Positions 3,089-38,432 of a stretch of 64,000 nucleotides of DNA are shown one piece after another; within the stretch, counting starts at the first letter, position 1; every line of letters begins with the position of its first letter. Below the pieces are notes generated by a model that was given only the letters and a program-made list of their open reading frames with translations, had not been told where the DNA came from and did no database searches. The translations under genes were made by a program, and so were the position numbers. This DNA comes from a virus. The stretch spans positions 200,604-264,603 of the IMG/VR virus record IMGVR_UViG_3300045988_173726; one strand, written 5' to 3'.

Positions 3089-3757
3089 ATGGGACGAGTA
3101 AATTTATCGGATGACGCAGTAGGAAAGCTCGCAGAGGTCATTTGCACGGATATTCACACGAATATCGTAAAGGGCGTGACTTATATTCTGTTAGAGGAGA
3201 AGCCGAATACTAAGGTAAGGCTTGATATGTATATGGGTCTTCGCAGGGAGATAGACAGCGAGGGGTTTAAGCCAGACGAGGTATTTCGGGTTTATAAGGT
3301 ATCAAACGGGTATGTGTTTGATATGGAGCAGGAGATAGCGGTTTCGATTACAAAGGCGATAATGCAGAAGTCTGGGTCGCTAGATGATAAGAACATGCGG
3401 GCGGTGCTAAACAGCGTGGTAGAGAGAAGCAAGGTACGGCGAGAGAAAGAGATGAAGCGGCTTGCGGCGCTTTGTTATAAGGCGTATAAGGCAGGAAAGA
3501 CATCTCTTGAGGTATTGCTGTTTGGTAAGAACGAGGTCGGGAAAGTTATCATCACGGTAAAGGATGGGAAAGACGACTATGTAATCACATATCCTTCGTT
3601 TATGCTCCGTCCGAGTGATATGCAGAGTGTAAACGAAGAGTATTTGATTAAGAGTGGTATACGGATAAAGAGTATCGAGACAGGTGAGATAGTGGGGACG
3701 AATCGTGGTCTAAGGGTCGTGGTGAACTTAGGTGCGAATGTAAAGAAGGTGCTGTAA
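3089..3757 (+). CDS. Hypothetical protein
   Basis: Long ORF. The track starts at TTG 3074, but ATG 3089 sits behind RBS 'ggaggg'. No family recognised. Confidence 0.55.
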   Translation: MGRVNLSDDAVGKLAEVICTDIHTNIVKGVTYILLEEKPNTKVRLDMYMGLRREIDSEGFKPDEVFRVYKVSNGYVFDMEQEIAVSITKAIMQKSGSLDDKNMRAVLNSVVERSKVRREKEMKRLAALCYKAYKAGKTSLEVLLFGKNEVGKVIITVKDGKDDYVITYPSFMLRPSDMQSVNEEYLIKSGIRIKSIETGEIVGTNRGLRVVVNLGANVKKVL

Positions 3758-11751: not shown

Positions 11752-12962
11752 AGAGGCGTAAGGTAGTTTATGCGGCACTTTTAGCGACAGCGGTGCTGGG
11801 GCTAACGGCTTGTGGAAAGACAGTGGTTTATGACGAGTCGAATCTGCCGACCGAGACGGTAAAGGGAGCAGAGACAGGGGAAGCTGTGACAGAAGCGGCT
11901 AGGTCAGAGAGCGCAGAAAGTACGGATAGTGGGAAGCCCGAGAATGACGGCGCACGGTCAGCGGGGATAGATAAAGTCCATGAGGTTGTAGATAATAAGG
12001 CAACCAATACAAAGATAGAGGACACGGCTAAGCAACAGGAAGTGATAGCGGCGATACGTGGGAAATTAAACGAGGCGCACAGCAGTTTATCCTCGGTCGG
12101 GACGGTAAACTTCGAGATGATACAGCTTGACAAAGCGTCTTATGCGCCGAAGCGGTATATTGCGAACATAAATCGGACGGTTAAAAAGACGGGCAAGGTG
12201 TATTCGGTAGAGTCCTTGTCGGACGAGACATATAAGGGAGTGGAATCGCTTACGAACAGAAAGACTTATCTAATCGACAGCGGGGAGAGGACTTTAAGCT
12301 ACTCTAAGAAGTACGATTCAACGCTAGAGGACGGAAGTAAGAAGCCGTGGCTTGCGGTAATCGTAGATAAGGACATAGAGAACGAGCCAATAAACTTATC
12401 GGAGATAGACAAGGTGATTGACCTAAGTTTATTTGAGGTAGGCGAGGAGACGAATGACAACATCGAGAGTTATACGCTGACTTGCTATATACCAATCTAC
12501 AGCGAGCTTGAGTTAATGGGCATCAATCCAGACAGTGTGCTTGTAAGTAAGGATAACTCTGGCGGGTATAAGGGAACGATAAAGATTTACGCAGATAAGA
12601 GCGACTATACGATACATAAAATTGAGTTTTCTGGAAAGAAAGCGATGGATGTGTATTACAATAACACATATACGGCGAGCGGAGAGTCGAGTGAAGAGGT
12701 AAAGATACAGAAGTGCAGGGCATCGTTTAAGCTGGGCGACTATAGCGACCTTAAGATAGACATTCCGAAGGAGATAGAGGAGAAGCTTCCAGAGGATGCG
12801 AAGGCGGCGGCAGAGTCGTTTGTAACGCCGACCGAGGATAAGGAGTCGATAAGCCTAGACGGAGACTTTAGTTTAGGGCTAGACGCAGAAAAGGCGGACG
12901 ATAGCGGCAAGGCAGAGACGAGCGGCACAGACGCGGCGAGTGAAGATTCCCTTAAAAAGTAA
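11748..12962 (+). CDS. Lipoprotein
   Basis: Signal peptide with lipobox 'AVLGLTAC|GK'. GTGA start/stop overlap with the upstream gene. Confidence 0.65.
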   Translation: MKRRKVVYAALLATAVLGLTACGKTVVYDESNLPTETVKGAETGEAVTEAARSESAESTDSGKPENDGARSAGIDKVHEVVDNKATNTKIEDTAKQQEVIAAIRGKLNEAHSSLSSVGTVNFEMIQLDKASYAPKRYIANINRTVKKTGKVYSVESLSDETYKGVESLTNRKTYLIDSGERTLSYSKKYDSTLEDGSKKPWLAVIVDKDIENEPINLSEIDKVIDLSLFEVGEETNDNIESYTLTCYIPIYSELELMGINPDSVLVSKDNSGGYKGTIKIYADKSDYTIHKIEFSGKKAMDVYYNNTYTASGESSEEVKIQKCRASFKLGDYSDLKIDIPKEIEEKLPEDAKAAAESFVTPTEDKESISLDGDFSLGLDAEKADDSGKAETSGTDAASEDSLKK

Positions 12963-13534: not shown

Positions 13535-13573
13535 AGGCTTAAATAGTATAACTAGTTGGAAACGGAGGGCAAA

Positions 13574-14542
13574 ATGGCAGGGAACAGTAATCTTCACAGA
13601 GCAAAAGAGGCGAAGAACGATGAGTTCTACACACAGCTTTCGGATGTAGAGAATGAGCTTGTGCATTATCGGGAGCATTTTAGGGGTAAGACAGTGTTTT
13701 GTAACTGTGATGACCCGACATGGAGTGCGTTCTGGAAGTATTTTCATTTGAATTTCGGCTTTCTTGGTCTTACGCGTCTTGTTTCTACGCATTACGACAA
13801 AGAGCAAAGCACATATATGATGGAGTATCTTGGCGGGGATGATAACGATGTGAGTGTCGGGACGAAAACGCCGCTCAAGGGAAACGGAGATTTTAGAAAC
13901 GAAGAGTGTTTGGAATTGCTTCGGCAGAGTGACATCGTGGTGACGAACCCGCCGTTTTCGCTGTTTAGAGAGTTTATCGGGACGCTGATGGAGTATGAGA
14001 AGAAGTTTATTGTGTGGGGAAACAATAACGCTGTAACATATAAGGAATTCTTTCCGTTGATTCGTGAAGATAAGTTATGGCTCGGGTATTTGTCGAATAA
14101 GACCTGCATATTCGGGGTAGGTGAAGGCTATAGGTACGATGAGAAGATAACGGCACAGATGAATGACGGAATGAAGTACGGGAAAGTTCCTGCAATTTCG
14201 ACTTTTACCAACCTCGACATCAAGAAGCGTCACGAAAATCTTATTCTCTATAAGCATTATAGTCCCGAGGGATTTCCGAAGTATGATAACTACGATGCAA
14301 TCAACGTAGACAAGGTATCGGATATACCGATGGATTATGACGGAGTAATGGGAGTTCCTATTACATTTCTCGACAAGTATAATCCAGAGCAGTTTGTGCT
14401 TATCGGAACAGATTTTCAAGTAAAAGACGGCGAGTTAGCTGACATCAGAAATAAGAGTTGGGGCGGTAAGTTTGACAGGGGCTATATTAACGGTAAGCGT
14501 CTCTATTCGAGGGTGTTTATTCGTAAAACATTACATAGCTAA
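13574..14542 (+). CDS. N6-adenine-type DNA methyltransferase (NPPF motif), paralog 1
   Basis: 'KNDEFYTQLSDVE' and 'DIVVTNPPFSLFREFI' (motif IV NPPF). Highly similar to 34991..35998. ATG 13574 sits behind 'ggaggg'; the track starts at 13556. Confidence 0.75.
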   Translation: MAGNSNLHRAKEAKNDEFYTQLSDVENELVHYREHFRGKTVFCNCDDPTWSAFWKYFHLNFGFLGLTRLVSTHYDKEQSTYMMEYLGGDDNDVSVGTKTPLKGNGDFRNEECLELLRQSDIVVTNPPFSLFREFIGTLMEYEKKFIVWGNNNAVTYKEFFPLIREDKLWLGYLSNKTCIFGVGEGYRYDEKITAQMNDGMKYGKVPAISTFTNLDIKKRHENLILYKHYSPEGFPKYDNYDAINVDKVSDIPMDYDGVMGVPITFLDKYNPEQFVLIGTDFQVKDGELADIRNKSWGGKFDRGYINGKRLYSRVFIRKTLHS

Positions 14543-19071: not shown

Positions 19072-19913
19072 TTGTAACAGCGGAGACTTTTATTCCTGCC
19101 CTTTTGGGGATTATGCTTGGCTTGATGGTGATATTTATTGCCAGCCTTTGGGTAATCAAGCGTTATGTGTTGTCTGCCTCTCTTGCTATATTAGCCGCAT
19201 GTGCGGTATTTACTGTATTTATAGGCTCTATCATATGGTTTTGCAACGATGCTCCAGTAGATAAGCCAGATTTTATACCTAGGGCAAGTAACGAAGTAAT
19301 TTCTGGCAGTAACACTAGTATTAACTTCGAATCCTTAACAGTTACAGGCTATTCTGTTGGTTCTCCAGTTCCCTGTAGTTACTCTTCTAACGGGAGTGTA
19401 GGCGGTTCAGCTTCGATTCAGAGTGGTAGTGTTAATGGAGATATGAATACTAGCTTTAATTGGTATGCCTATCCTATGACCGTGCCTGTTGATAGCCAAA
19501 ATTCTGGGAGCTTAGTGTCTTTTGGCATTCTGTTTGATAACTTGTCAGCTAATTGCAGTGTAAATCTTTCTTCTCCTGCTACAAACGGAGACAACAAGTA
19601 TATTTTGAACGCGAAAGCCGACTTTAATAACGGGGTGTCAGAGTCGTTTGGAATTGCTGGTGGTAAGGTGCGGTTTAGCGGGTTGCAGTACGGAAAGAGT
19701 TATGCTTTTGGTGATAAGAGCCTTACAGTGGCAGAGGATGGAACGGCAGAGGTAGAGTTTACTGTTCCAGACTACGGGTATGTGGACAGTATGTTTCCAG
19801 ATTTGTATTCGGTTAGGCTTGTAAAAGCCGAGGGAAATTCCTTGGAGACAGAGTTAATTTTGTATGTGAAGCGTCCAATAAAGAGGGCTGTGGATGTGCG
19901 AGCGGGGAAGTGA
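19068..19913 (+). CDS. TM-anchored beta-domain family paralog (two N-terminal TM helices)
   Basis: TMs 'LLGIMLGLMVIFIASLWVI' and 'LAILAACAVFTVFIGSIIWF'. C-terminal 'VRFSGLQYGKSYAFGDKSLTVAEDGTAEVEFTVPDYG'. Confidence 0.6.
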   Translation: MIVTAETFIPALLGIMLGLMVIFIASLWVIKRYVLSASLAILAACAVFTVFIGSIIWFCNDAPVDKPDFIPRASNEVISGSNTSINFESLTVTGYSVGSPVPCSYSSNGSVGGSASIQSGSVNGDMNTSFNWYAYPMTVPVDSQNSGSLVSFGILFDNLSANCSVNLSSPATNGDNKYILNAKADFNNGVSESFGIAGGKVRFSGLQYGKSYAFGDKSLTVAEDGTAEVEFTVPDYGYVDSMFPDLYSVRLVKAEGNSLETELILYVKRPIKRAVDVRAGK

Positions 19914-19943
19914 ATTTGGCTAAAAATTTTCCTGTAAAAACAG

Positions 19944-19972
19944 TTGACAGCTTAGAGGCAATCTGCTAGACT
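19944..19972 (+). promoter_or_regulatory. Sigma70-like promoter for the tRNA array
   Basis: TTGACA (19944-19949), 17-nt spacer, TAGACT (19967-19972), about 165 nt upstream of the first tRNA. Confidence 0.6.
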
Positions 19973-20135
19973 ATGGTTGTGGTTAAGAGAGAGGCGGGAG
20001 CGGCTGAATCGTCATGGGACTTTTACAGGTTCTGCGCATCTCAAGACCACTTAAGAGAGGGGATAGCGTTATCTCCTAGCGCAGAGGGTACTGCGGGATG
20101 CGCGGCGTTTAACAGAGTTTAAGCGCCGTAAGGAA

Positions 20136-20208
20136 CGGGATGTGGCTCAAGTGGTAGAGCGCTTGCTTTGGGAGCAAGACGTTGCAGGTTCAAGTCCTGT
20201 CATTCCGA
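20136..20208 (+). tRNA. tRNA-Pro (anticodon TGG)
   Basis: Hand-folded cloverleaf: acceptor cgggatg/cattccg, D gctc/gagc, anticodon stem cttgc/gcaag with loop tttggga, T gcagg-ttcaagt-cctgt. 73 nt. Confidence 0.85.
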
Positions 20209-20281
20209 TTTACCGTATGGGGATGTACGGTAAGCCACTTTGCCTCCTTACAATGTGGGATTTTCCAGACGGATAGACGGT

Positions 20282-20347
20282 GTGGCGGTAGTGTAGAGGG
20301 AGCATGACGCTAAGGCGTAGGAGCGGGTTCGAGCCTCGCCCGTCACA
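20282..20347 (+). ncRNA. Shortened tRNA-like module (no 7-nt anticodon loop)
   Basis: Acceptor gtggcgg/ccgtcac, T arm gcggg-ttcgagc-ctcgc and a GG-containing D-like arm. The central arm is only acgc-taag-gcgt (4 bp, 4-nt loop). 66 nt. Confidence 0.45.
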
Positions 20348-20423
20348 TTAGCTGACTTCGGTCAGCGAACATTTTCCTCATCTCCAACAAACAGAGCGGC
20401 GAGTGCGTGAATACCATTCGCCT

Positions 20424-20472
20424 CGGATACGCGACATATGGTCGCCGCTGGGTGCAAGTCCTAGGTATCCGA
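20424..20472 (+). ncRNA. Mini tRNA-like module (acceptor + one hairpin + T arm)
   Basis: Acceptor cggatac/gtatccg, hairpin gcgac-atatg-gtcgc, T-like arm ctggg-tgcaagt-cctag. 49 nt. Confidence 0.4.
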
Positions 20473-20528
20473 TTTGCTAGAGCATCCGTGAACAGTGCTT
20501 TAGCGGTTAACCAATCAAATTGTCTTGG

Positions 20529-20587
20529 AAGTCAGTAGTTTAGTGGTAAAACGCTTTGAGACGCGGGTTCGAGTCCCGTCTGACTTC
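20529..20587 (+). ncRNA. Shortened tRNA-like module (anticodon arm missing)
   Basis: Acceptor aagtcag/ctgactt, canonical D arm gttt-agtggta-aaac, T arm gcggg-ttcgagt-cccgt. Only about 10 nt (gctttgagac) lie between the D and T arms. 59 nt. Confidence 0.45.
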
Positions 20588-20657
20588 TTCCGTCCCTCGG
20601 AATTTCCCCCGTTGGCTTGAGAAGGCTCACCGACACACAACTCCGAGGAGACGGTTT

Positions 20658-20703
20658 ACGGGCGCGGTAAGGCGCAGTGGGGGTTCAACTTCCCCCGCCC
20701 GTT
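20658..20703 (+). ncRNA. Mini tRNA-like module (acceptor + T arm)
   Basis: Acceptor acgggcg/cgcccgt, T arm ggggg-ttcaact-tcccc, 14-nt connector. 46 nt. Confidence 0.4.
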
Positions 20704-20765
20704 CTGTGCGGTCGTTGTCTTGCAAAATACCTGCCAAGTGAGACAGCGCTCCGCACTCCCCCCAA

Positions 20766-20839
20766 GGAAAGGTGGCTCAATAGGTGAGAGCATTCGGCTC
20801 ATAACCGAACGGTTGCGGGTTCGAGTCCCGCCCTTTCCA
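20766..20839 (+). tRNA. tRNA with CAT anticodon (Met, or Ile2 if lysidinylated)
   Basis: Acceptor ggaaagg/cctttcc, D gctc/gagc, anticodon stem ttcgg/ccgaa with loop ctcataa, T gcggg-ttcgagt-cccgc. 74 nt. Confidence 0.85.
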
Positions 20840-20852
20840 CTAGAGTTTTTAG

Positions 20853-20916
20853 ACGACAGTAGTTTACGGGAATGCGCCAAAGGCGCGGAGAGAGGTTCGA
20901 TTCCTTTCCTGTCGTA
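20853..20916 (+). ncRNA. Shortened tRNA-like module (triloop hairpin in place of anticodon arm)
   Basis: Acceptor acgacag/ctgtcgt, T arm agagg-ttcgatt-ccttt. The central hairpin is gcgcc-aaa-ggcgc. 64 nt. Confidence 0.4.
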
Positions 20917-20984
20917 TAGCCGTAGTTCCGTGATACTCCATATCTGCTACGGTGAATCCTTTCTGGTACCTGCTGGTGCTTGGT

Positions 20985-21049
20985 TGTGCGGTAGCTTAAC
21001 GGCTAGAGCTAGGCGTAGTCCGATGCGGGTTCGACTCCCGCCTGCACAA
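20985..21049 (+). ncRNA. Shortened tRNA-like module (anticodon arm missing)
   Basis: Acceptor tgtgcgg/ctgcaca (one G-U), D arm gctt-aacggcta-gagc, T arm gcggg-ttcgact-cccgc. Only 15 nt lie between D and T, and no 5-bp/7-nt arm is possible. 65 nt. Confidence 0.45.
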
Positions 21050-21093
21050 TTTGTCCGAAGGTCGGGCAAAAATACTATGGTTTCGATTACTCG

Positions 21094-21159
21094 GTAGGGC
21101 GTTCGTTTAAGCGGAAAGACGGCATATTGCCATGTAGGTTCGACTCCTACGCGCCTACT
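21094..21159 (+). ncRNA. Shortened tRNA-like module (triloop hairpin in place of anticodon arm)
   Basis: T arm gtagg-ttcgact-cctac, acceptor-like stem gtagggc/gc(g)cctac with a 1-nt bulge, central hairpin ggca-tat-tgcc. Confidence 0.35.
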
Positions 21160-21223
21160 CGTAACTGTAGAGTTTGGTTGGGCTTTGCAGTTACGGGATA
21201 CAAGCCCAGAGTTTGTATCCTAC

Positions 21224-21297
21224 GCTTTGTTAGTTCAGTTGGGAGAACGCACGGCTGTAAAGCGTGGTCGCCATTGGTTCGAGTCCAATACAGAGCG
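21224..21297 (+). tRNA. tRNA, anticodon GTA by position (Tyr), short variable loop
   Basis: Acceptor gctttgt/acagagc (one G-U), D gttc-agttggga-gaac, anticodon stem cacg(g)/(g)cgtg with loop ctgtaaa, T attgg-ttcgagt-ccaat. The 31-39 pair is G-G. The lack of a long variable arm is atypical for bacterial tRNA-Tyr. Confidence 0.55.
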
Positions 21298-21326
21298 TTA
21301 GACCATATGGTCTAAAGAGTTTATCT

Positions 21327-21405
21327 GCTGTCGTGGTGGAATAGGTATACACGGCGGACTTAAAATCCGCTGGCTTCGAGCCATGTTCAAATCCGACCGT
21401 CAGCA
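21327..21405 (+). pseudogene. tRNA-Leu(TAA)-like, degenerate T stem
   Basis: The anticodon arm gcgga-cttaaaa-tccgc and the variable hairpin ggct-tcg-agcc are good. The 5' strand of the T stem, expected to pair with ccgac, is absent (ccatg). The acceptor has one T-T mismatch. Confidence 0.4.
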
Positions 21406-21567
21406 TTGCTTGTGCCATAGATGCCCTAAGTATTGTTCCTTGGAGCAGGATGCAGGCATCACAAGTAGAACTTCCGTCTAAGCGAGGCGAATGCTCCAGT
21501 CCTTGCGATGACGGGGAGAGCCGAAGTTCAAATCATTAGAGTAGGCATAGTTATAGGCTTTCAGTGT

Positions 21568-21655
21568 GGAGAGGTACTCAAGTGGTTTAAGAGAACGGTC
21601 TTGAAAACCGTGAGGTCGTGAAAACGGCGCGAGGGTTCAAATCCCTCCTTCTCCG
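21568..21655 (+). tRNA. tRNA-Ser (anticodon TGA)
   Basis: Class II fold: acceptor ggagagg/cttctcc, anticodon stem acggt/accgt with loop cttgaaa, long variable arm, T gaggg-ttcaaat-ccctc. 88 nt. Confidence 0.85.
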
Positions 21656-21795
21656 TTAGAGGTGTTTTGCTGGTTCACCTCTAAACCTCCTTCTTTTTGG
21701 AAACAGCCGTTCGCTTATTTCGGGCAAGATAAGCGGAAAAGTAAGTACTGTGGCTAAGGACGCAGTGTTTACCAGAGGGATGGCGACCCTCATAT

Positions 21796-21883
21796 GGAGA
21801 GATACTCAAGTTGGTGAAGAGGACAGGTTGCTAACCTGTTAGGTCGCGAAAGTGGCGCAAGGGTTCAAGCCCCTTTCTCTCCG
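21796..21883 (+). tRNA. tRNA-Ser (anticodon GCT)
   Basis: Acceptor ggagaga/tctctcc, anticodon stem acagg/cctgt with loop ttgctaa, long variable arm, T aaggg-ttcaagc-ccctt. 88 nt. Confidence 0.85.
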
Positions 21884-21940
21884 TTCTGCCGTTTATTTCC
21901 CTAAGTGTGTGCTTTGGGAGCGAGCGGCAGTATTAAACAG

Positions 21941-21992
21941 TCCTATATAGATGTATTAAACTCAAGATAGTTTAGCATCTCCCTGTAGGACG
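21941..21992 (+). repeat. Structured ~52-nt direct repeat, copy 1
   Basis: 'tcctatatagatgtattaaactcaagatagtttagcatctccctgtaggacg'. Its ends pair (tccta/tagga, agatg/catct). A near-identical copy lies at 22386-22436. Confidence 0.75.
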
Positions 21993-22148
21993 TAGATTAC
22001 TTGCCTCGTGTGAGCGTAAAGCGTTCACAGAAAAGTATGGGCGTTGCACACGCGCCTATGCACTGCAGAATGCCGCACTGTAAATGCGGAAGCCGAATGG
22101 CATAAAGTGTCTGCGGGGACAGTGGCTAGGGCGGGCGCTGTCCGATTT

Positions 22149-22222
22149 GAGGCTGTAGCTTATCTGGATAAAGCGACAGATTCCTAATCTGTAGACGGTA
22201 GGTTCGAGTCCTATCAGCCTCA
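22149..22222 (+). tRNA. tRNA-Arg (anticodon CCT)
   Basis: Acceptor gaggctg/cagcctc, D gctt/aagc, anticodon stem acaga/tctgt with loop ttcctaa, T gtagg-ttcgagt-cctat. 74 nt. Confidence 0.85.
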
Positions 22223-22229
22223 TTGTTTT

Positions 22230-22301
22230 GCCGTGATAGCACAATGGCAGTGCATTTGATTTGTAATCAAAAGGTTATCGGTTCGAGTCCGATTTGCGGC
22301 T
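22230..22301 (+). tRNA. tRNA-Thr (anticodon TGT)
   Basis: Acceptor gccgtga/ttgcggc (two G-U), D gcac/gtgc, anticodon stem tttga/tcaaa with loop tttgtaa, T atcgg-ttcgagt-ccgat. 72 nt. Confidence 0.8.
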
Positions 22302-22304
22302 TAT

Positions 22305-22384
22305 GCCCGCATGGTGGAATAGGCAGACACGCTGGATTTAGGTTCCAGTGGGAAACCGTGTAGGTTCAAATCCTACTGTGGGCA
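22305..22384 (+). tRNA. tRNA-Leu (anticodon TAG)
   Basis: Acceptor gcccgca/tgtgggc, anticodon stem ctgga/tccag with loop tttaggt, 11-nt variable arm, T gtagg-ttcaaat-cctac. 80 nt. Confidence 0.8.
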
Positions 22385-22385
22385 T

Positions 22386-22436
22386 TCCTATACAGATGTA
22401 TCAACACAAGATAGTTGGGCATCTCCCTGTAGGATG
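22386..22436 (+). repeat. Structured ~52-nt direct repeat, copy 2
   Basis: 'tcctatacagatgtatcaacacaagatagttgggcatctccctgtaggatg' lies immediately 3' of tRNA-Leu(TAG). Confidence 0.75.
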
Positions 22437-22511
22437 CGTGGCTATCGTAGTTGTTTACCCCTTATGACTGCGGTAGCCCCTTTGTTTGTATAGGGGATAG
22501 AGGAGGTAGAG

Positions 22512-22853
22512 ATGAGCGAAAGACAGGGAGATATGAGTTATAAGGGCTTTGTGGGCGAGGTCAAGTATTCGGAAGAGGACGGAAAGTTTATCGGTCGAGT
22601 GCTTGATATTGAGGATGCAGAGCTTGAGTTTGCGGGTAGCTCCGTGAGTGAGTTGCAGGAGGGCTTTCGTGCGGTGGTTGACCGTTATCTGGAGCTTAAG
22701 GGTGACGACCAAGATGTAGAAATCGAGGTTACGCTAAAGAAAAGCCTTTTGCGGGCGGTTGTAGAGTGTGCGGAAGAGCAGGAAGTGACGATTGACGAGT
22801 TTGTGAGCGCGGCGCTGTTTGACTATTGCAGTGCGAATTACGGGGAAGAGTAA
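22512..22853 (+). CDS. hicB: HicB-family antitoxin-like protein with C-terminal RHH
   Basis: 'YKGFVGEVKYSEEDGKFIGRVLDIEDAELEFAGSSVSELQEGFRAVVDRYLEL' fits the HicB-like fold pattern. The C terminus 'VTLKKSLLRAVVECAEEQEVTIDEFVSAAL' is RHH-like. Strong RBS 'gaggagg'. No HicA-like ORF is adjacent. Confidence 0.6.
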   Translation: MSERQGDMSYKGFVGEVKYSEEDGKFIGRVLDIEDAELEFAGSSVSELQEGFRAVVDRYLELKGDDQDVEIEVTLKKSLLRAVVECAEEQEVTIDEFVSAALFDYCSANYGEE

Positions 22854-22859
22854 CGCGCG

Positions 22860-23849
22860 GTGATTACGAATAGAGTATTTTCGGCAGTAAAACAGAGCCT
22901 TGACAAAGCGACCAGTGCAGAGGATGTACTGGTCGTTGCTGTATCTGGGGGCGCGGATAGTATGTGTTTATTAGACACTGTGCGACAGATACGGAGACAG
23001 GTCGGGAAAGTAGTTGTGTGTCACTTGCATCATGGGGTAAGGACGGACGGTAGTGCAGAGCGGGATATGCTCTTGGTAAAGGGGTATTGTGACGGATGCG
23101 GGATACCCTTCTTTTATCGGCGGGTAGATGTGCCGAGTATTGTAGAGGAAACGGGGAAGTCGGCAGAGCTTGTCGGGAGAGAGCTTCGGTATCGGTTTTT
23201 TAACGAGGTAGGGTCGTGTTACGGTTCGTATAAGATTCTGACTGGGGCAAATGCGAATGATTCTGTAGAGACAGTGCTTATGCACTTAATTCGTGGGGCT
23301 TCGGTAGATGGTTTATGCGGGATACGGGAAGTAAACGGTAGGGTAGTTCGTCCTTTGGTCGGGGTAAGTCGGAGAGAGATAGAGGCTTATGTTAAGGGAA
23401 ACGGAGTTCCGTATAGCATAGACCCTACAAACCTAGAAGTAGAGTATACGAGAAACAAGGTTAGATTAGAGCTACTCCCGTATATCGAGGGGAATTTGAA
23501 TCCTAACATCGTGAATACGCTTTTAAGTAGCATAAAGTCGTTTTCGGAGGACAGTGAGACGCTTAATCGGCTTACGGAGAGGGCGTATCAGAAGTATTTA
23601 CTTAGGGATACGGGGAAGGAGCGAGTGTTTTCGCTTAGTCTTTTAGGTGAAGATAGGTCGATAGTGAAGCGGGTACTGCTTAGAGCAGTACGAGAGGTGC
23701 TTAACACAACGCAGTTTAGCTTTAAGACAGCGATGATAGATAAGCTACTGGATAGCCCGCTTACAGATGGCAGGACTCGGCAGGTAAGTTTATCAAAGCG
23801 CCTAAAGGTAGTTGTATCAAAGGGAAGGATAGCAGTCATTTCGGAGTGA
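22860..23849 (+). CDS. tilS: tRNA(Ile)-lysidine synthetase (TilS), PP-loop ATPase
   Basis: PP-loop 'VAVSGGADSMCLL', plus 'CHLHHGVR' and 'GRELRYRFF'. Length and order are typical of the TilS N-terminal and substrate-binding domains. Confidence 0.8.
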   Translation: MITNRVFSAVKQSLDKATSAEDVLVVAVSGGADSMCLLDTVRQIRRQVGKVVVCHLHHGVRTDGSAERDMLLVKGYCDGCGIPFFYRRVDVPSIVEETGKSAELVGRELRYRFFNEVGSCYGSYKILTGANANDSVETVLMHLIRGASVDGLCGIREVNGRVVRPLVGVSRREIEAYVKGNGVPYSIDPTNLEVEYTRNKVRLELLPYIEGNLNPNIVNTLLSSIKSFSEDSETLNRLTERAYQKYLLRDTGKERVFSLSLLGEDRSIVKRVLLRAVREVLNTTQFSFKTAMIDKLLDSPLTDGRTRQVSLSKRLKVVVSKGRIAVISE

Positions 23850-34990: not shown

Positions 34991-35998
34991 ATGGGACGAA
35001 ACAGCGAGCTAAATCGGGCGCGAGTTGGTAAAAATGACGAGTTTTATACAGATATGTCGGATGTTTCAAAGGAGATGGTGTGTCATAGGGAACAGTTTAG
35101 GGGAAAGACTGTGTTTCTTAACTGTGATGACCCAGTTACAAGCGCCTTTTGGGAGTATTTTCACTTAAATTTCGGGTTTCTCGGGCTTAGGCGGCTCATT
35201 GCTACGCATTACGACAAGGATAAGCCGACATATAAGCTTGAGTATTGCGGTGGGGACGATAACGAGGTTCTTGTAGGGTATAAGACAGCTCTTATCGGGA
35301 ACGGAGATTTTAGGAACGAAGAGTGCCTTGCACTCTTAAAAGAGAGCGACATAGTAGTTACAAACCCGCCGTTTTCTCTGTTTCGGGAGTTTATCGGGAC
35401 GCTTATAGCATATGAGAAAAAGTTTATTATCCTCGGGAATATGAACGCAGTAACAGCGAAAGAGGTATTCGATTTATTCCGCGAGAATAAGGTCTGGTAC
35501 GGTGATTCGATTCATTCTGGGGATAGACGATTTTATGTGCCAGAGAGCTATCCGCTTAACGCGGCTGGGTGCGGAGTCGATGCGGACGGTAGGCGGTTTA
35601 TACGGGTCAAGGGAGTTCGCTGGTTTACGAATCTTCCTGTCAAATGTAGGTCTGAAAAGATTATTCTGTATAAGCAATACAGTGAAGCAGAATATCCGAA
35701 GTTTAATAAGTTTGATGTGATAAATGTGGACAAGACAGCGGAGATACCTGTGGATTATTCTGGCGTTATGGCAGTTCCGATTTCATTTCTCGATAAATAT
35801 AATCCAGAGCAGTTTGAGATAGTTACACTAAGAAAGTTATCGGACGGGAGTGTGAGAGCGTTTAGCGGGAACGAGGGAAGTGAGTTTCCCGTTGCTACGA
35901 GGATAGCGGGGATGTTAAGGGGAAATGAAGGAGAGGTTGGAGATAGAACAACTTATGCGAGGATAACGATACGGGGGAAAGTCGGTGGCAGAGAATGA
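34991..35998 (+). CDS. N6-adenine-type DNA methyltransferase (NPPF motif), paralog 2
   Basis: 'KNDEFYTDMSDVS' and 'DIVVTNPPFSLFREFIGTL'. The N-terminal ~170 aa closely parallel paralog 1. The middle region differs, which suggests a different target-recognition domain. Confidence 0.75.
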   Translation: MGRNSELNRARVGKNDEFYTDMSDVSKEMVCHREQFRGKTVFLNCDDPVTSAFWEYFHLNFGFLGLRRLIATHYDKDKPTYKLEYCGGDDNEVLVGYKTALIGNGDFRNEECLALLKESDIVVTNPPFSLFREFIGTLIAYEKKFIILGNMNAVTAKEVFDLFRENKVWYGDSIHSGDRRFYVPESYPLNAAGCGVDADGRRFIRVKGVRWFTNLPVKCRSEKIILYKQYSEAEYPKFNKFDVINVDKTAEIPVDYSGVMAVPISFLDKYNPEQFEIVTLRKLSDGSVRAFSGNEGSEFPVATRIAGMLRGNEGEVGDRTTYARITIRGKVGGRE

Positions 35999-36860
35999 AA
36001 AGATAAATGAGCGGCTTAAGCGTGCAAAGGATAGGCAGGACGATGAGTTTTATACGCAGTATTCGGACATAGAGCGGGAGCTAAGATATTACGAGTCTAA
36101 GTTTGTCGGAAAGCGGATTTATTGTAACTGTGATAATCCGCTTGAGAGCGCATTCTTTCGATATTTTCACTTAAATTTTAATAGGCTCGGGCTTCGGAGT
36201 TTAACAGCAACACATCTTTCAGAGAATAGAGCCTTTTGTGCCAGATATACAGGGGAATGCGATAAGGATGTGCGAGTTTATTTATCAGAGCCGCTTAAGG
36301 GGGACGGTGACTTTAGAAGTGATGAGTGCAGGGAGCTATTAAAGAGTTCCGATATAGTTTGTACGAATCCACCGTTTTCTTTGGCAAGAGAATTTATTGA
36401 GACACTGGTAACAGAGGACAAGTTATTTTTAATTGTCGGAGCGTTGCCTTGGCTCGGGTACGGTACGGTGTTTCCGCTTATTCGGGATAATAAGATTTGG
36501 GTCGGGATTAACGACATAACCGAGTTTATCCGTCCCGATGGGACTTTTCGGCATATCGGTTTCGGGCTTTGGCTCACGAATCTTGATAACGAGCGGCGGC
36601 ATAAACGAATAGAGTTAAAGGCGCAGTTTTCTAGTGAAGCGTATACGAAATATGATAATTTTGACGCTATAAATGTGGATAAGGTAGCGGATATACCAAA
36701 AGATTATTTCGGAGTAATGGGGCTTCCTCTGCCGTTTCTGAAACAATATAATCCCGAGCAGTTTGAGATAGTGGGGTTTCGGAAAGGGAATGACGGGAAA
36801 GATTTGAGAGTAGGGGAGCAAGAGCTTTTTAGCCGAGTGTTAATTCGGAGAAAGGAGTAA
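35985..36860 (+). CDS. N6-adenine-type DNA methyltransferase (NPPF motif), paralog 3
   Basis: 'QDDEFYTQYSDIE' and 'DIVCTNPPFSLAREFIETL'. Overlaps the upstream gene by 14 nt. Confidence 0.75.
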   Translation: MAENEKINERLKRAKDRQDDEFYTQYSDIERELRYYESKFVGKRIYCNCDNPLESAFFRYFHLNFNRLGLRSLTATHLSENRAFCARYTGECDKDVRVYLSEPLKGDGDFRSDECRELLKSSDIVCTNPPFSLAREFIETLVTEDKLFLIVGALPWLGYGTVFPLIRDNKIWVGINDITEFIRPDGTFRHIGFGLWLTNLDNERRHKRIELKAQFSSEAYTKYDNFDAINVDKVADIPKDYFGVMGLPLPFLKQYNPEQFEIVGFRKGNDGKDLRVGEQELFSRVLIRRKE

Positions 36861-37271: not shown

Positions 37272-38432
37272 ATGAAGATTTCAGAGCGTAAATTAAAGGT
37301 TTCGGAGCTTGTGGCGGGCTATACCGATGACGGCGAGGACGGTGTTTTCGGATTTGGTGGGAAGCTTTCGATTCGTCCCGCATATCAGAGAGAGTTCGTT
37401 TATAAGGATGCACAGAGGAATGCGGTGATTGATTCGGTGCTTTGCGGGTATCCTCTGAATGTGATGTATTGGTCGAAGGTCGGGGATGACAAGTATGAGG
37501 TGCTTGACGGACAGCAGAGAACGATTTCGATTTGTCAGTTTATTAACAGCGGTTTCTCTATGAAGATAGACGGAAACGCGAAGTTTTATCATAATTTAAC
37601 CGAGGATGAGAAGCAGATAATCCTAAACTACGAGTTATCGGTTTATGTGTGTGAGGGTAACGAGTCAGAAAAGCTTGCTTGGTTTAAGAGGATAAACATA
37701 CCTGGGGCTGTTCTCACAGAGCAAGAACTTCTTAACGCGACATATACAGGAACTTGGCTTTCGGATGCGAAGAACTACTTTTCTCGGCGTAATTGCGTAG
37801 CTGGAAAGGTAGGAGAAGGGTTTATCAAGGGAAATCCGATACGGCAGGATTATCTTGAGAAAGCGTTAGCTTGGATAGCACTTCGAGACGGGTTAGCGAG
37901 TGGAGAGCAGTATATGGCGTTGCATCAGCATGACGCGGACGCAAGTGACATATGGCTTTATTTCCAAGAGGTGATTGCGTGGGCGAAGCGGTATTTTCCA
38001 GATATGGATAAGAAGCTCACGGAGGCACAGGATTGGGGCGCACTGTATACTAAGCATAAGACATGGAAGTATAATCCCAGTGAGCTAAAGAAAGAGGTTT
38101 CAAAGCTTTTGGAGGACGATGATGTAACGAAGCAGACAGGAATCATTCCGTATGTCTTATCGGAGAAAACGAGGCATGATGAGAGATACTTGTCGATTCG
38201 GGCATTTTCCGACCAGATGAAGCGAAGAGTTTATCAGCGTCAGACAGAGGAAGCCGAGAAGAAGCACTTGTCAAACTGCCCGTATTGTGCGCAGGAGGGT
38301 CTTACTAAGATTTACGAGTATAGCGAGATGCAGGGCGACCATATAGTAGCGTGGCGAAACGGTGGAAAGACGGTAGAGAGTAACTTGCAGATGCTCTGTG
38401 CGGCTTGTAATAACGCAAAGAGCGGGAAGTAA
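37272..38432 (+). CDS. DUF262 (ParB/GmrSD N-terminal-like, DGQQR motif) + HNH nuclease
   Basis: 'YEVLDGQQRTISICQF' is the DUF262 signature. C-terminal HNH 'CPYCAQ...GDHIVAWRNGGKTVESNLQMLCAACNNAKSGK'. Confidence 0.8.
   Translation: MKISERKLKVSELVAGYTDDGEDGVFGFGGKLSIRPAYQREFVYKDAQRNAVIDSVLCGYPLNVMYWSKVGDDKYEVLDGQQRTISICQFINSGFSMKIDGNAKFYHNLTEDEKQIILNYELSVYVCEGNESEKLAWFKRINIPGAVLTEQELLNATYTGTWLSDAKNYFSRRNCVAGKVGEGFIKGNPIRQDYLEKALAWIALRDGLASGEQYMALHQHDADASDIWLYFQEVIAWAKRYFPDMDKKLTEAQDWGALYTKHKTWKYNPSELKKEVSKLLEDDDVTKQTGIIPYVLSEKTRHDERYLSIRAFSDQMKRRVYQRQTEEAEKKHLSNCPYCAQEGLTKIYEYSEMQGDHIVAWRNGGKTVESNLQMLCAACNNAKSGK

Follow-up and report, generated by a model that had tools for sequence, protein, structure and literature searches.

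Why phages carry tRNA genes is a question that has stood for fifty years. To our knowledge, the tRNA-like stable RNAs which phages T4 and T5 encode besides true tRNAs have never been assigned a function. These are annotated as RNA1, RNA2 and RNA3 in the tRNA region of the T5 record, and as rnaC (species 1 RNA) and rnaD in the T4 record. Like the elements described here, they lie between true phage tRNA genes and consist of an acceptor-type stem on a consensus T arm with a non-decoding middle. They are longer, at 73-144 nt, and instead of a clean deletion of the anticodon arm they have additional hairpins where a tRNA has its D and anticodon region. A genome encodes between one and three of them, while the present phage has seven in a row.

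Comparable RNAs are found outside phages. The mascRNA is freed by RNase P and RNase Z and then CCA-tailed. The mascRNA/MEN-beta tRNA-like family (RF01684) resembles the phage elements in its length of about 58 nt, in its acceptor, D and T arms and in an anticodon arm that is reduced and cannot decode, but it is the 3'-end element of a eukaryotic nuclear lncRNA. The TMERs of murine gammaherpesvirus 68 consist of a non-aminoacylated tRNA-like part followed by hairpins, which are split by RNase Z. They share with the present array the viral, repeated arrangement of tRNA-like and hairpin units; they are eukaryotic Pol III units, their hairpins are pre-miRNAs, and there is no homology. The bacterial YrlA RNA includes a tRNA-like part which has T and D arms but lacks an anticodon; there, however, this part is internal, the ends form a Ro-binding stem and the rsr (Ro60) gene is linked. 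In plant mitochondria, t-elements built of an acceptor stem and a T arm mimic tRNAs and act as RNase P and RNase Z signals that fix the termini of adjacent transcripts (Forner et al. 2007, PMC1920247). Whereas t-elements flank organelle mRNAs and their cleavage was mapped experimentally, the phage elements flank short hairpin RNAs and tRNAs, and their cleavage is predicted. The closest precedents are the T4/T5 stable RNAs, the t-elements and mascRNA.

The array was analyzed in a 64-kb window of viral DNA (the whole stretch under study, 64,000 nt). Nine canonical tRNAs were identified by ARAGORN at 20136-22385, all on the plus strand, and seven shortened elements (E1 to E7) are interleaved with them, making up 7 of the 16 modules (Table 1). 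Nearly half of this huge phage's tRNA operon is thus given to conserved, non-decoding, tRNA-shaped RNAs. The promoter-like site upstream of the array is the sole such site within 19800-22900, and none lies inside the array. The tRNA(CAT) is probably tRNA-Ile2, on which the TilS-like enzyme encoded downstream would act. Open reading frames of 61-125 aa with TTG starts cross the array, overlapping tRNAs, and were judged spurious. A search with the TilS-like protein returned only bacterial chromosomes with TilS-FtsH synteny and no phages, BLAST of the array against GenBank phages matched canonical tRNAs only, and searches through the neighbouring proteins recovered only close relatives (78-94% amino-acid identity).

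Table 1. Features of the tRNA array and its surroundings in the 64-kb window
Feature	Position	Strand	Basis
Sigma-70-type promoter-like site (TTGACA-17-TAGACT with TG)	19944..19972	+	upstream of whole array; consensus match only
tRNA-Pro(TGG), canonical, array module 1	20136..20208	+	ARAGORN; Rfam tRNA 64.6 bits
Spacer RNA: 10-11-bp hairpin directly after discriminator, then hairpin with CCUCC loop	20209..20281	+	1/73 columns variable in nine genomes
E1: 7-bp acceptor, D arm, 4-bp stub hairpin with 4-nt loop at anticodon-arm position, T arm	20282..20347	+	Rfam tRNA (RF00005) 39.6 bits; fold; scanner
Spacer RNA: UUCG hairpin, about 30 nt of single strand with UUUUCCUCAUCUCC, then 3' hairpin	20348..20423	+	fold z -3.1
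E2, minihelix type: 7-bp acceptor, one 5-bp hairpin, T arm (loop UGCAAGU)	20424..20472	+	fold z -3.0; scanner
Spacer RNA: 11-12-bp hairpin	20473..20528	+	folding
E3, typical armless tRNA-like: acceptor, D arm, 10-nt linker, T arm; G15:C48 retained	20529..20587	+	Rfam tRNA (RF00005) 48.4 bits; scanner
Spacer RNA: long stem-loop spanning nearly all of the spacer, UCCCCC in internal loop	20588..20657	+	fold z -3.5; 5.7% columns variable
E4, minihelix type: acceptor, 14-nt insert, T arm	20658..20703	+	fold; scanner; class model 13.2 bits
Spacer RNA: long stem-loop and single-stranded UCCCCCC tail	20704..20765	+	fold z -5.4; 6.5% columns variable
tRNA(CAT), canonical	20766..20840	+	ARAGORN; Rfam
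E5: acceptor, unpaired D-like region, GCGCC-AAA-GGCGC hairpin, 6-bp T stem	20853..20916	+	fold; class model 16.4 bits
Spacer RNA: two hairpins	20917..20984	+	folding
E6, armless tRNA-like: 15-nt unstructured linker; A15:U48 retained	20985..21049	+	scanner; class model 42.7 bits
Spacer RNA: 9-bp hairpin from first base past discriminator	21050..21093	+	folding
E7: bulged acceptor (5+2 bp), D-like hairpin without GG, GGCA-UAU-UGCC stub, T arm	21094..21159	+	fold; 2/66 columns variable
Spacer RNA: two near-perfect hairpins (16 bp, 10 bp)	21160..21222	+	fold z -6.9
Array remainder: tRNA-Tyr, Leu(TAA), Ser(TGA), Ser(GCT), Arg(CCT), Thr(TGT), Leu(TAG), hairpin-containing spacer after each	21223..22385	+	ARAGORN; Rfam; folding
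TilS-like PP-loop ATPase (tRNA-Ile lysidine synthase, N-terminal domain only)	22860..23849	+	nearest RNA-related gene

A preliminary description of this DNA had proposed seven shortened tRNA-like modules of 46-66 nt without an anticodon arm, and these are confirmed in number and length. Minimum free energy folds of the intervals gave, in all seven, an acceptor-type terminal stem that leads into a T arm, whose 7-nt loop is of the UUCRANN type, while the position of the anticodon arm is taken by 3-15 nt or by a 4-5-bp stub with a 3-4-nt loop. ARAGORN called none of the seven. The gathering score of the Rfam tRNA model (RF00005), 29 bits, was exceeded among the elements by E1 and E3 only, with the anticodon arm deleted; in E3, 3 nt replace 15 model positions. 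Full-length or intron-containing tRNAs that had been mis-parsed, a possibility which the same description had named, are excluded by the lengths and by ARAGORN.

With a strict pattern, in which a T stem of 5 bp carries a T[TG]CRANN loop and is joined without a gap to an acceptor stem of 7 bp, 14 matches were found on the plus strand of the window, corresponding to eight tRNAs, E1, E2, E3, E4, E6 and one stray at 53120; there were none on the minus strand. The chance expectation from 200 Markov-simulated sequences is 0.18 matches per window. The uniform 7-bp acceptor and consensus T arm described earlier hold generally, with exceptions: the acceptor of E7 is 5+2 bp with a one-nt bulge, the T stem of E5 has 6 bp, the loop of E2 is UGCAAGU and the T stem of E4, in the window copy, is closed by a G-U pair. 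A GG-containing D-like arm in five elements was not recovered. D-type stems were found in four (E1, E3, E6 and E7), the loop of E7 lacking GG, and E5 has no D stem. G-U pairs are common in the stems, which indicates structure in the plus-strand RNA, and a function as palindromes at the DNA level was rejected on the same ground. Remnants of attP sites were also considered and rejected, as integration leaves 3' tRNA fragments only and the elements have both acceptor strands. The seven elements may, with confidence a little short of even, be taken as genes for small, tRNA-shaped, non-decoding RNAs.

Selection was assessed in nine syntenic related phage genomes of about 260 kb with about 91-93% identity. 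Variable columns amounted to 7.6% in the tRNAs and 12.3% in the elements, compared with 46% of the four-fold degenerate sites of the adjacent TilS-like gene (Fisher p about 1e-14 for elements versus four-fold sites). Within the elements 8.8% of paired and 16.9% of unpaired positions vary, and 16 stem substitutions keep pairing (two of them altering both sides) while 5 break it. The hairpin of E5 has 5 bp in the window copy and 10-12 bp in most relatives, a C-to-A change restoring a pair; the exchange of compensated hairpins of differing length indicates that a hairpin, and not a decoding loop, is wanted there. The internal parts of the elements are as variable as the acceptor/T half (12.2% versus 12.3%). 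Purifying selection thus acts on the entire body of each element and on its pairing. This bears out the earlier argument for selection over random decay, and the conservation in related genomes to which that argument had looked extends across all nine; covariation within this clade is thin and mostly of the wobble type because the available relatives are close.

The same data bear on the idea that the elements are young pseudogenes, the anticodon hairpin being a deletion hot spot and the copies having inherited their stems from parent tRNAs without time to decay. E2 is still tRNA-Pro-like, its 3' half being 76% identical to that of tRNA-Pro, armless forms are rare against true tRNAs (0 of 132 unbiased pattern matches), and diverse acceptor stems could mirror different parent tRNAs rather than compensatory evolution. 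Yet neither the neutral rate nor the lost stem complementarity of pseudogenes was found. The seven deletions are older than the split of the nine genomes, since when the rate of change in the elements has been about a quarter of that at four-fold sites, with stem changes biased towards pairing, and E5 has two different compensated hairpins. Seven armless forms in one operon, at a class frequency below about 2%, would not be expected from random mutation. We regard this origin as scarcely credible.

The elements are an extreme case of a broader and apparently undescribed class. Its members, of about 58 nt, have an acceptor stem, a D arm, a variable loop and a T arm but no anticodon arm, and occur in many IMG/VR contigs, in Lactococcus P335-group phages, where they are unannotated, and in the Enterococcus phage phiEF17H. 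When IMG/VR was searched for D and T arms, in that order, too close together to accommodate an anticodon arm, 76 of 120 matches had at least 6 of 7 acceptor pairs, compared with 2.8% for shuffled partners. The class is rare relative to true tRNAs, as given above. The matches score 41-55 bits with the Rfam tRNA model and none is called by ARAGORN. U8, A14 and A21 do not vary, and in 41 of 43 cases the tertiary pair 15:48 covaries. About 21 of 62 members are followed on the same strand, after 16-35 nt, by a start codon, as with terS/terL, portal or tail tube genes; for a family member upstream of terS no match was found in GenBank phages. A scan of bacterial genomes gave mostly chance matches, a good acceptor stem being present in 25 of 112, and is unfit for density estimates. 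No description of anticodon-arm-less phage tRNA-likes was found in the literature searched, in which subscription journals are thinly covered, so that absence is no proof.

A class model (R1) was built of the acceptor stem, U8 A9, the D arm, a short linker with a variable-loop-like end and 15:48 complementarity, and the T arm, spanning 55-68 nt. E3 (59.8 bits, in the training set) and E6 (not trained on) conform to it, E5 and E4 score marginally (Table 1), E1 was not reported by the model despite its arms and stub hairpin, and E2 and E7 were not found. Five of the seven elements are accordingly derived variants and not typical members. On T5 RNA1, RNA2 and RNA3 and T4 rnaC the model found T arms only, at 14-18 bits, and they have no sequence relationship to the elements; what they share with the elements is a design, not homology. 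The best match to RF01684 was E3 with 19.3 bits (E = 1.4), which at a gathering score of 42.5 does not make it a member. The Y-RNA-like mimics suggested earlier are not supported: the YrlA model (RF02553, gathering score 69) gave 16.2-16.9 bits, only at 20156-20268 and 22170-22287, which overlap canonical tRNAs, the elements end at the acceptor stem, and no Ro/TROVE domain was detected among 41 window ORFs scanned with Pfam.

G1 is present in the large majority of bacterial tRNAs. Acceptor stems differ widely across the class, only 39% having G1, which points to drift with pairing maintained and is a further argument against recent pseudogenes. It also argues against non-ribosomal amino-acid carriers, that is, modules charged by anticodon-independent synthetases which deliver to a non-ribosomal acceptor. 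The alanine identity set G3:U70 with A73 does occur in a few class members (L032, L134 and a 53-nt element in L029), and E2 shares C1:G72/A73 with the tRNA-Pro next to it. G3:U70 is found in none of the seven window elements, however (E1 has G4:U69), and no gene of the aminoacyl-transferase type was seen nearby among the window ORFs scanned. Such carriers are very unlikely.

By analogy with t-elements, mascRNA and the tRNA-like/hairpin units of MHV68, we tentatively prefer, at slightly under even probability, processing punctuation as the main role of the elements in this operon. It also fits best, as we infer, among the roles listed in the preliminary description. The elements and the nine true tRNAs would be transcribed together from the one upstream promoter as a single precursor. 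All seven elements retain the features that host tRNA maturation would measure, the acceptor stem stacked on the T arm together with the T loop, and E1, E3 and E6 also the D arm, which makes up the elbow; with the acceptor/T-arm determinants retained, host RNase P is expected to cut their 5' ends. Since CCA is encoded in none of the seven, host RNase Z would cut after the discriminator, ahead of CCA addition. Both kinds of cut would release the tRNAs on either side, as well as the conserved hairpin RNAs lying between the modules. The products would be tRNA look-alikes of element length which are unable to read codons, stable by-products possibly with a function in themselves; the annotated T5/T4 stable RNAs provide a precedent for such accumulation. 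Transcription, the three enzymatic steps, product accumulation and biological purpose are predictions.

The spacers are part of this proposal. A hairpin begins within 0-3 nt after every module, and 24% of spacer columns vary in the nine genomes; in the direct comparison with four-fold sites the figures are 21% against 46% (p 6e-8). In three spacers only 1-6% of columns vary, and fold z values reach -3.5, -5.4 and -6.9. Positions 20372-20384, in the spacer after E1, are complementary to 22509-22521. The nine true tRNAs already supply RNase P and RNase Z sites, so that seven extra signals would need a reason; release of the spacer RNAs would be one if the spacers are functional, as their conservation and folding suggest. 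Pure cutting signals should also show freer internal parts than the acceptor/T half. The equal conservation of both in the elements, together with the 15:48 pair kept in the class, suggests that the RNA body itself matters and counts against punctuation alone.

That constraint on the entire body is what would be expected of decoys or sponges, in which matured, CCA-tailed look-alikes bind proteins recognising the acceptor end or the elbow and stay out of translation, RNase P and RNase Z merely making them. Candidate partners are tRNA-targeting immune effectors, or toxins which modify or cleave the acceptor end, and among host factors EF-Tu, a synthetase, the CCA-adding enzyme and modification enzymes; mimicry towards the CCA-adding enzyme, EF-Tu or a synthetase, as proposed earlier, is possible. 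The conserved U8, A14 and A21 and the covarying 15:48 pair of the class imply that the full tRNA core and elbow shape are kept, and seven differing acceptor stems per operon would suit titration of several partners. Many defence systems attack tRNAs (e.g. PMC11464382, PMC12673091, PMC12445682, PMC12330615). The Lactococcus P335-type element appears to be free-standing, with no same-strand gene close downstream and a TGnTATAAT-like motif, read by eye, about 100 nt upstream. It is identical in two phages with unrelated flanks, a mosaic context which speaks for decoys and against pseudogenes, and it looks more like an sRNA gene than punctuation. The window ORFs scanned, on the other hand, show no linked partner gene except the TilS-like enzyme, which needs the anticodon, and no such RNA decoys were described in the literature searched. 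The tight siting of many class members just before start codons is not required of decoys. The decoys for anticodon nucleases proposed earlier make little sense because the cleavage target is the missing part; they could at best bind, not absorb cleavage. Decoys are on balance a somewhat unlikely main role.

Less probable still is that phages widely encode a dedicated class of anticodon-arm-less tRNA mimics, with core and elbow under selection, which act in trans as decoys or sponges for tRNA-targeting immune effectors that recognise the acceptor end or the elbow, or for tRNA-handling host enzymes. The present phage would then have seven such mimics in alternation with processed hairpin RNAs, and the locus would be a polycistronic non-coding RNA operon for host takeover, matured wholly by host tRNA-processing enzymes. 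The unpaired, C-rich, anti-Shine-Dalgarno-like motifs of the spacers might in such an operon target ribosome-binding sites.

The armless design is scattered through uncultured phages and stands unannotated in well-studied dairy phages; its presence in Lactococcus P335-group phages and an Enterococcus phage makes laboratory tests feasible. Pipelines based on Infernal and Rfam would label such elements 'tRNA' (40-55 bits) while ARAGORN skips them, so that the catalogue is wrong in either case. One prophage map shows 'a predicted unspecified tRNA' (PMC3757294). If processing punctuation is the true role, the elements would offer small, naturally occurring parts with which RNAs of defined ends could be released in bacteria.

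As a minor observation, C-rich motifs in the spacers are enriched about 2-3-fold only over composition, and are a lead.

The preliminary description placed seven tRNA-like elements lacking an anticodon arm (E1 to E7) among the canonical tRNAs, and this was borne out by folding, ARAGORN, Rfam and a pattern scanner. In all seven, a terminal acceptor-type stem closes directly onto a T arm with a 7-nt loop, generally of the UUCRANN type, leaving too few nucleotides between the two for an anticodon arm. ARAGORN, run on the window as had been proposed, called none of the seven. With the Rfam tRNA model (gathering score 29) E3 and E1 scored 48.4 and 39.6 bits, respectively, and the E3 alignment has 3 nt in place of 15 model positions. 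A home-made, strict acceptor plus T arm scanner, with an expectation of 0.18 matches per 64 kb, returned eight tRNAs, E1, E2, E3, E4, E6 and one stray match elsewhere on the + strand, and nothing on the - strand of the window. A 6-bp T stem is the sole reason why E5 was missed, and a one-base bulge in the acceptor stem why E7 was. The claim of 7-bp acceptor stems and consensus T arms throughout stands except for this bulge, the 6-bp E5 T stem and the E2 T loop, which reads UGCAAGU. GG-containing D-like arms had been claimed for five elements; a D-type stem is present in E1, E3, E6 and E7, but the E7 D loop lacks GG and the E5 D region is unpaired. CCA is encoded in none of the modules of the array.

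The array recurs, its order unchanged and all of E1 to E7 present, in eight related genomes. In the nine-genome alignment (window plus these relatives), variable columns made up 7.6% of the true tRNAs, 12.3% of E1 to E7, 24% of all array spacers (the RNA between modules) and 21% of the spacers from tRNA-Pro to tRNA-Tyr, compared with 46% of four-fold degenerate sites in the TilS-like gene adjacent to the array, taken from eight of the nine genomes. Compared with the four-fold sites by Fisher tests, the elements gave p ~1e-14 and the Pro-Tyr spacers 6e-8. Inside the elements, variability was 8.8% at paired and 16.9% at unpaired positions. A standard pair is preserved in 16 of 21 stem changes (distinct changes, with letters on both sides), evidence which is mostly wobble-type and not double compensatory since the relatives are merely 7-9% diverged. 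The window shares GCGCC-AAA-GGCGC at the anticodon-arm position of E5 with one relative; in the remaining genomes the hairpin there is longer, 10-12 bp closing an 11-13-nt loop, and a C-to-A change restores a pair. These sequences indicate that a hairpin is selected at this position and its size is free, contrary to a decoding arm. The low variability relative to four-fold sites and the pairing-preserving changes uphold the earlier proposal of selection rather than random decay and, with the E5 hairpins, rule out decaying pseudogenes; that the elements are young pseudogenes is very improbable.

IMG/VR was scanned for the 3' half of a D arm (TGGTAGAGC) followed, after a gap of 2-20 nt, by a T arm (a real tRNA needs a gap of ~26 nt), giving at least 120 matches. 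Among the matches listed, 76 of 120 had 6-7 of 7 acceptor pairs in the canonical register, vs 2.8% with shuffled partners, and at least 62 distinct armless elements were recognized, 55-68 nt in length with a mode of 58. Their architecture is acceptor, U8 A9, D arm, 6-17-nt linker, T arm and discriminator; the discriminator is mostly A and CCA is rarely present. These listed elements scored 41-55 bits with the Rfam tRNA model, and ARAGORN called none of them. When 43 were aligned, 97.7% of stem cells were paired (65% after shuffling), all seven acceptor pairs had changed on both sides, and U8, A14 and A21 were invariant. The tertiary pair 15:48 was G:C or A:U in 41 of 43, which 0 of 5000 shuffles reached. 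As judged from this alignment, the missing part is precisely the anticodon stem-loop, with the tRNA core and elbow retained. Some variants have a stub hairpin of 3-5 bp with a tri- or tetraloop and others are smaller minihelix forms, paralleling the three gap-filling modes of E1 to E7. A covariance model built from the class (R1) finds E6, which was outside the training set, at 42.7 bits, and E5 and E4 weakly; its other matches in the window were true tRNAs and weak ones (E 0.007-0.03) at 2911-2946 and at 22359-22376, the T arm of tRNA-Leu(TAG).

ARAGORN found no tRNA gene in about half of 60 armless loci from the matches listed. Approximately one third of the listed elements have a same-strand start codon 16-35 nt downstream, ahead of terS/terL, portal or tail genes. 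Further elements sit between the tRNAs of arrays, as in locus L029 with Val-(53 nt)-(66 nt)-Ser-Ser. At L029:2754-2806 and in L032 and L134, a GGGCCG acceptor stem occurs with G3:U70 and discriminator A, the alanine identity set. A 180-kb phage contig (L058) carries four dispersed copies (47-62 nt) in 12.5 kb, between same-strand genes in a region devoid of canonical tRNAs; three acceptor stems are related (AGCGATG, AACGATG, AGCGGTG) and that of the 47-nt element differs (TAGCAGG). A recurrent ~43-nt family, GGTAG-11 nt-AGCAGGG UUCGAUU CCCUGC-CUACC (L090, L098, L112, L121, L125, L131, L044), looks like a minihelix of 5-bp acceptor and 6-7-bp T stem with neither D nor anticodon arm, and resembles E2 and E4 in design.

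An unbiased scan allowing gaps of 2-30 nt gave 132 matches, none with a gap below 22 nt; armless forms are therefore rare relative to true tRNAs, less than about 2%, and the 7 of 16 modules in the window operon are far above the class frequency. The acceptor stems of the class could be diverse through descent from different parent tRNAs, and their diversity alone is no proof of compensatory evolution. Against pure inheritance count the G at position 1, present in just 39% of the class (matches listed), and a Lactococcus phage element conserved in mosaic contexts. This 61-nt element lies unannotated downstream of the lysin gene in the records of at least 30 Lactococcus phages, P335-group members such as P335, ul36, bIL309, bIL286 and TP712 among them. 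It is identical in two phages with unrelated flanks, and a TGnTATAAT-like motif was read by eye ~100 nt upstream. Enterococcus phage phiEF17H has a 55-nt armless element, and "a predicted unspecified tRNA" is drawn on one published map of a prophage (PMC3757294).

The tRNA region of T5 contains RNA1 and RNA2, annotated in GenBank as "tRNA-like stable RNA with unknown functions", and RNA3, a "putative tRNA-like RNA"; T4 has rnaC and rnaD. Their folds share with E1 to E7 the idea of a non-tRNA middle enclosed by an acceptor stem and T arm. These RNAs are longer, however, each genome has only a few, and R1 revealed no homology to the armless class. No description of an anticodon-arm-less class in phages was found in the searchable literature. 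Rfam assigned the elements neither to mascRNA nor to YrlA, and the Y-RNA-like role once suggested is not supported. These elements are of interest for the number of modules in the window operon, for how widely the class occurs and for the cultured phages available for tests.

RNase P, RNase Z and the CCA-adding enzyme are established to gauge a tRNA by its acceptor/T coaxial helix and elbow. E1 to E7 retain both and lack just the one part that decoding requires. In the best-supported model the elements would be transcribed inside the tRNA precursor, excised at the 5' end by RNase P and, because they are CCA-less, cut past the discriminator by RNase Z, whereupon CCA would be added; the cuts would also release the flanking tRNAs and conserved hairpin RNAs. 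Processing punctuation could well be their main role in the window operon, although we propose it tentatively. In its favour are the close spacing to start codons downstream, the conserved structured spacers and precedents, the working analogues being plant mitochondrial t-elements (PMC1920247), the 58-nt mascRNA and the MHV68 tRNA-like/hairpin units. The closest rival, less likely on balance, makes the look-alike RNAs the actual product, acting as mimics or decoys for proteins reading the acceptor end or elbow; for it speak the element interiors, conserved as much as the acceptor/T halves, and the apparently free-standing Lactococcus copy. A function as amino-acid carriers is very improbable, and the remaining probability belongs to explanations outside those listed.

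As to the spacers, a hairpin begins 0-3 nt past the discriminator of each tRNA and each element. In several of them, one or two long stem-loops make up essentially the whole spacer and z is strongly negative, and three vary less than the elements (1.4%, 5.7% and 6.5% of columns). Four Pro-to-Met spacers contain C-rich, anti-Shine-Dalgarno-like motifs (CCUCC, UCCUCA, UCCCCC, UCCCCCC), which are a lead and not a result because enrichment over base composition is merely 2-3-fold (CTCC 11 vs 4.0 expected, CCCC 7 vs 3.1). Single-stranded 20372-20384 is complementary at 11 of 13 positions to 22509-22521, where the first ORF past the array has its start-codon region.

Features of the window and of contig L058 (contig coordinates for the latter)
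Feature	Location	Strand or remark
E1 to E7	20282-20347, 20424-20472, 20529-20587, 20658-20703, 20853-20916, 20985-21049, 21094-21159	+
Sigma-70-like promoter match	19944-19972	ahead of tRNA array; sole such match there, consensus only
C-rich spacer motifs	20243-20247, 20375-20381, 20605-20610, 20757-20763	loops or single-stranded in predicted folds
Spacer	20588-20657	z -3.5
Spacer	20704-20765	z -5.4
Spacer	21160-21222	z -6.9
tRNA with anticodon CAT	20766-20840	probably tRNA-Ile2
tRNA-Tyr(GTA) slot	21223-21298	
~53-nt motif, two copies	21938-22059, 22383-22435	
TilS-like PP-loop protein, 329 aa	22860-23849	just 3' of array
Three EcoRI-type adenine methyltransferase paralogues and GmrSD_N/HNH protein	13556-14542, 34991-35998, 35985-36860, 37272-38432	within 64 kb
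L058 armless copies	350-410, 2052-2113, 3556-3610, 12833-12879	-

Every long ORF of the window is on the + strand. Among the products recognized are a topoisomerase II subunit, a DnaB-like helicase, a ParB/HNH protein, three EcoRI-like methylases and an NlpC/P60 lysin-type protein, and numerous others lack a family assignment. Its syntenic relatives in IMG/VR and ENA are contigs 214-268 kb long, which places the window in a huge phage. The region 19914-22511 contains nine canonical tRNAs (ARAGORN) and no credible ORFs. Downstream are a 113-aa ORF and the TilS-like enzyme, which lacks the C-terminal domains of bacterial TilS (~460 aa) and has its nearest cellular relatives in Bacillota/Clostridia (35-46% identity). 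The tRNA-Tyr slot is the most variable module of the array (37% of columns). Five relatives (L004, L006, L007, L014, L015) share its acceptor stem with the window and have a different body, with an irregular anticodon loop according to ARAGORN (anticodons "taaa", "ta", "ataa"); the tRNA there may have been replaced or be non-standard. The two ~53-nt motif copies, 86-91% identical, flank tRNA-Arg, tRNA-Thr and tRNA-Leu(TAG) and match the Rfam IS605-orfB-I RNA at 47-49 bits, below the threshold of 94. One relative has a complete TnpB (OrfB_IS605 plus Cas12f1-like TNB) between tRNA-Thr and tRNA-Leu, and two others a 263-aa ORF without family between tRNA-Arg and tRNA-Thr; the loci concerned include L003:4247-5362 and L014:1298-2089. 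An IS605/TnpB-type element seems to be mobile within the tRNA array, the window apparently retaining its gene-less ends only.
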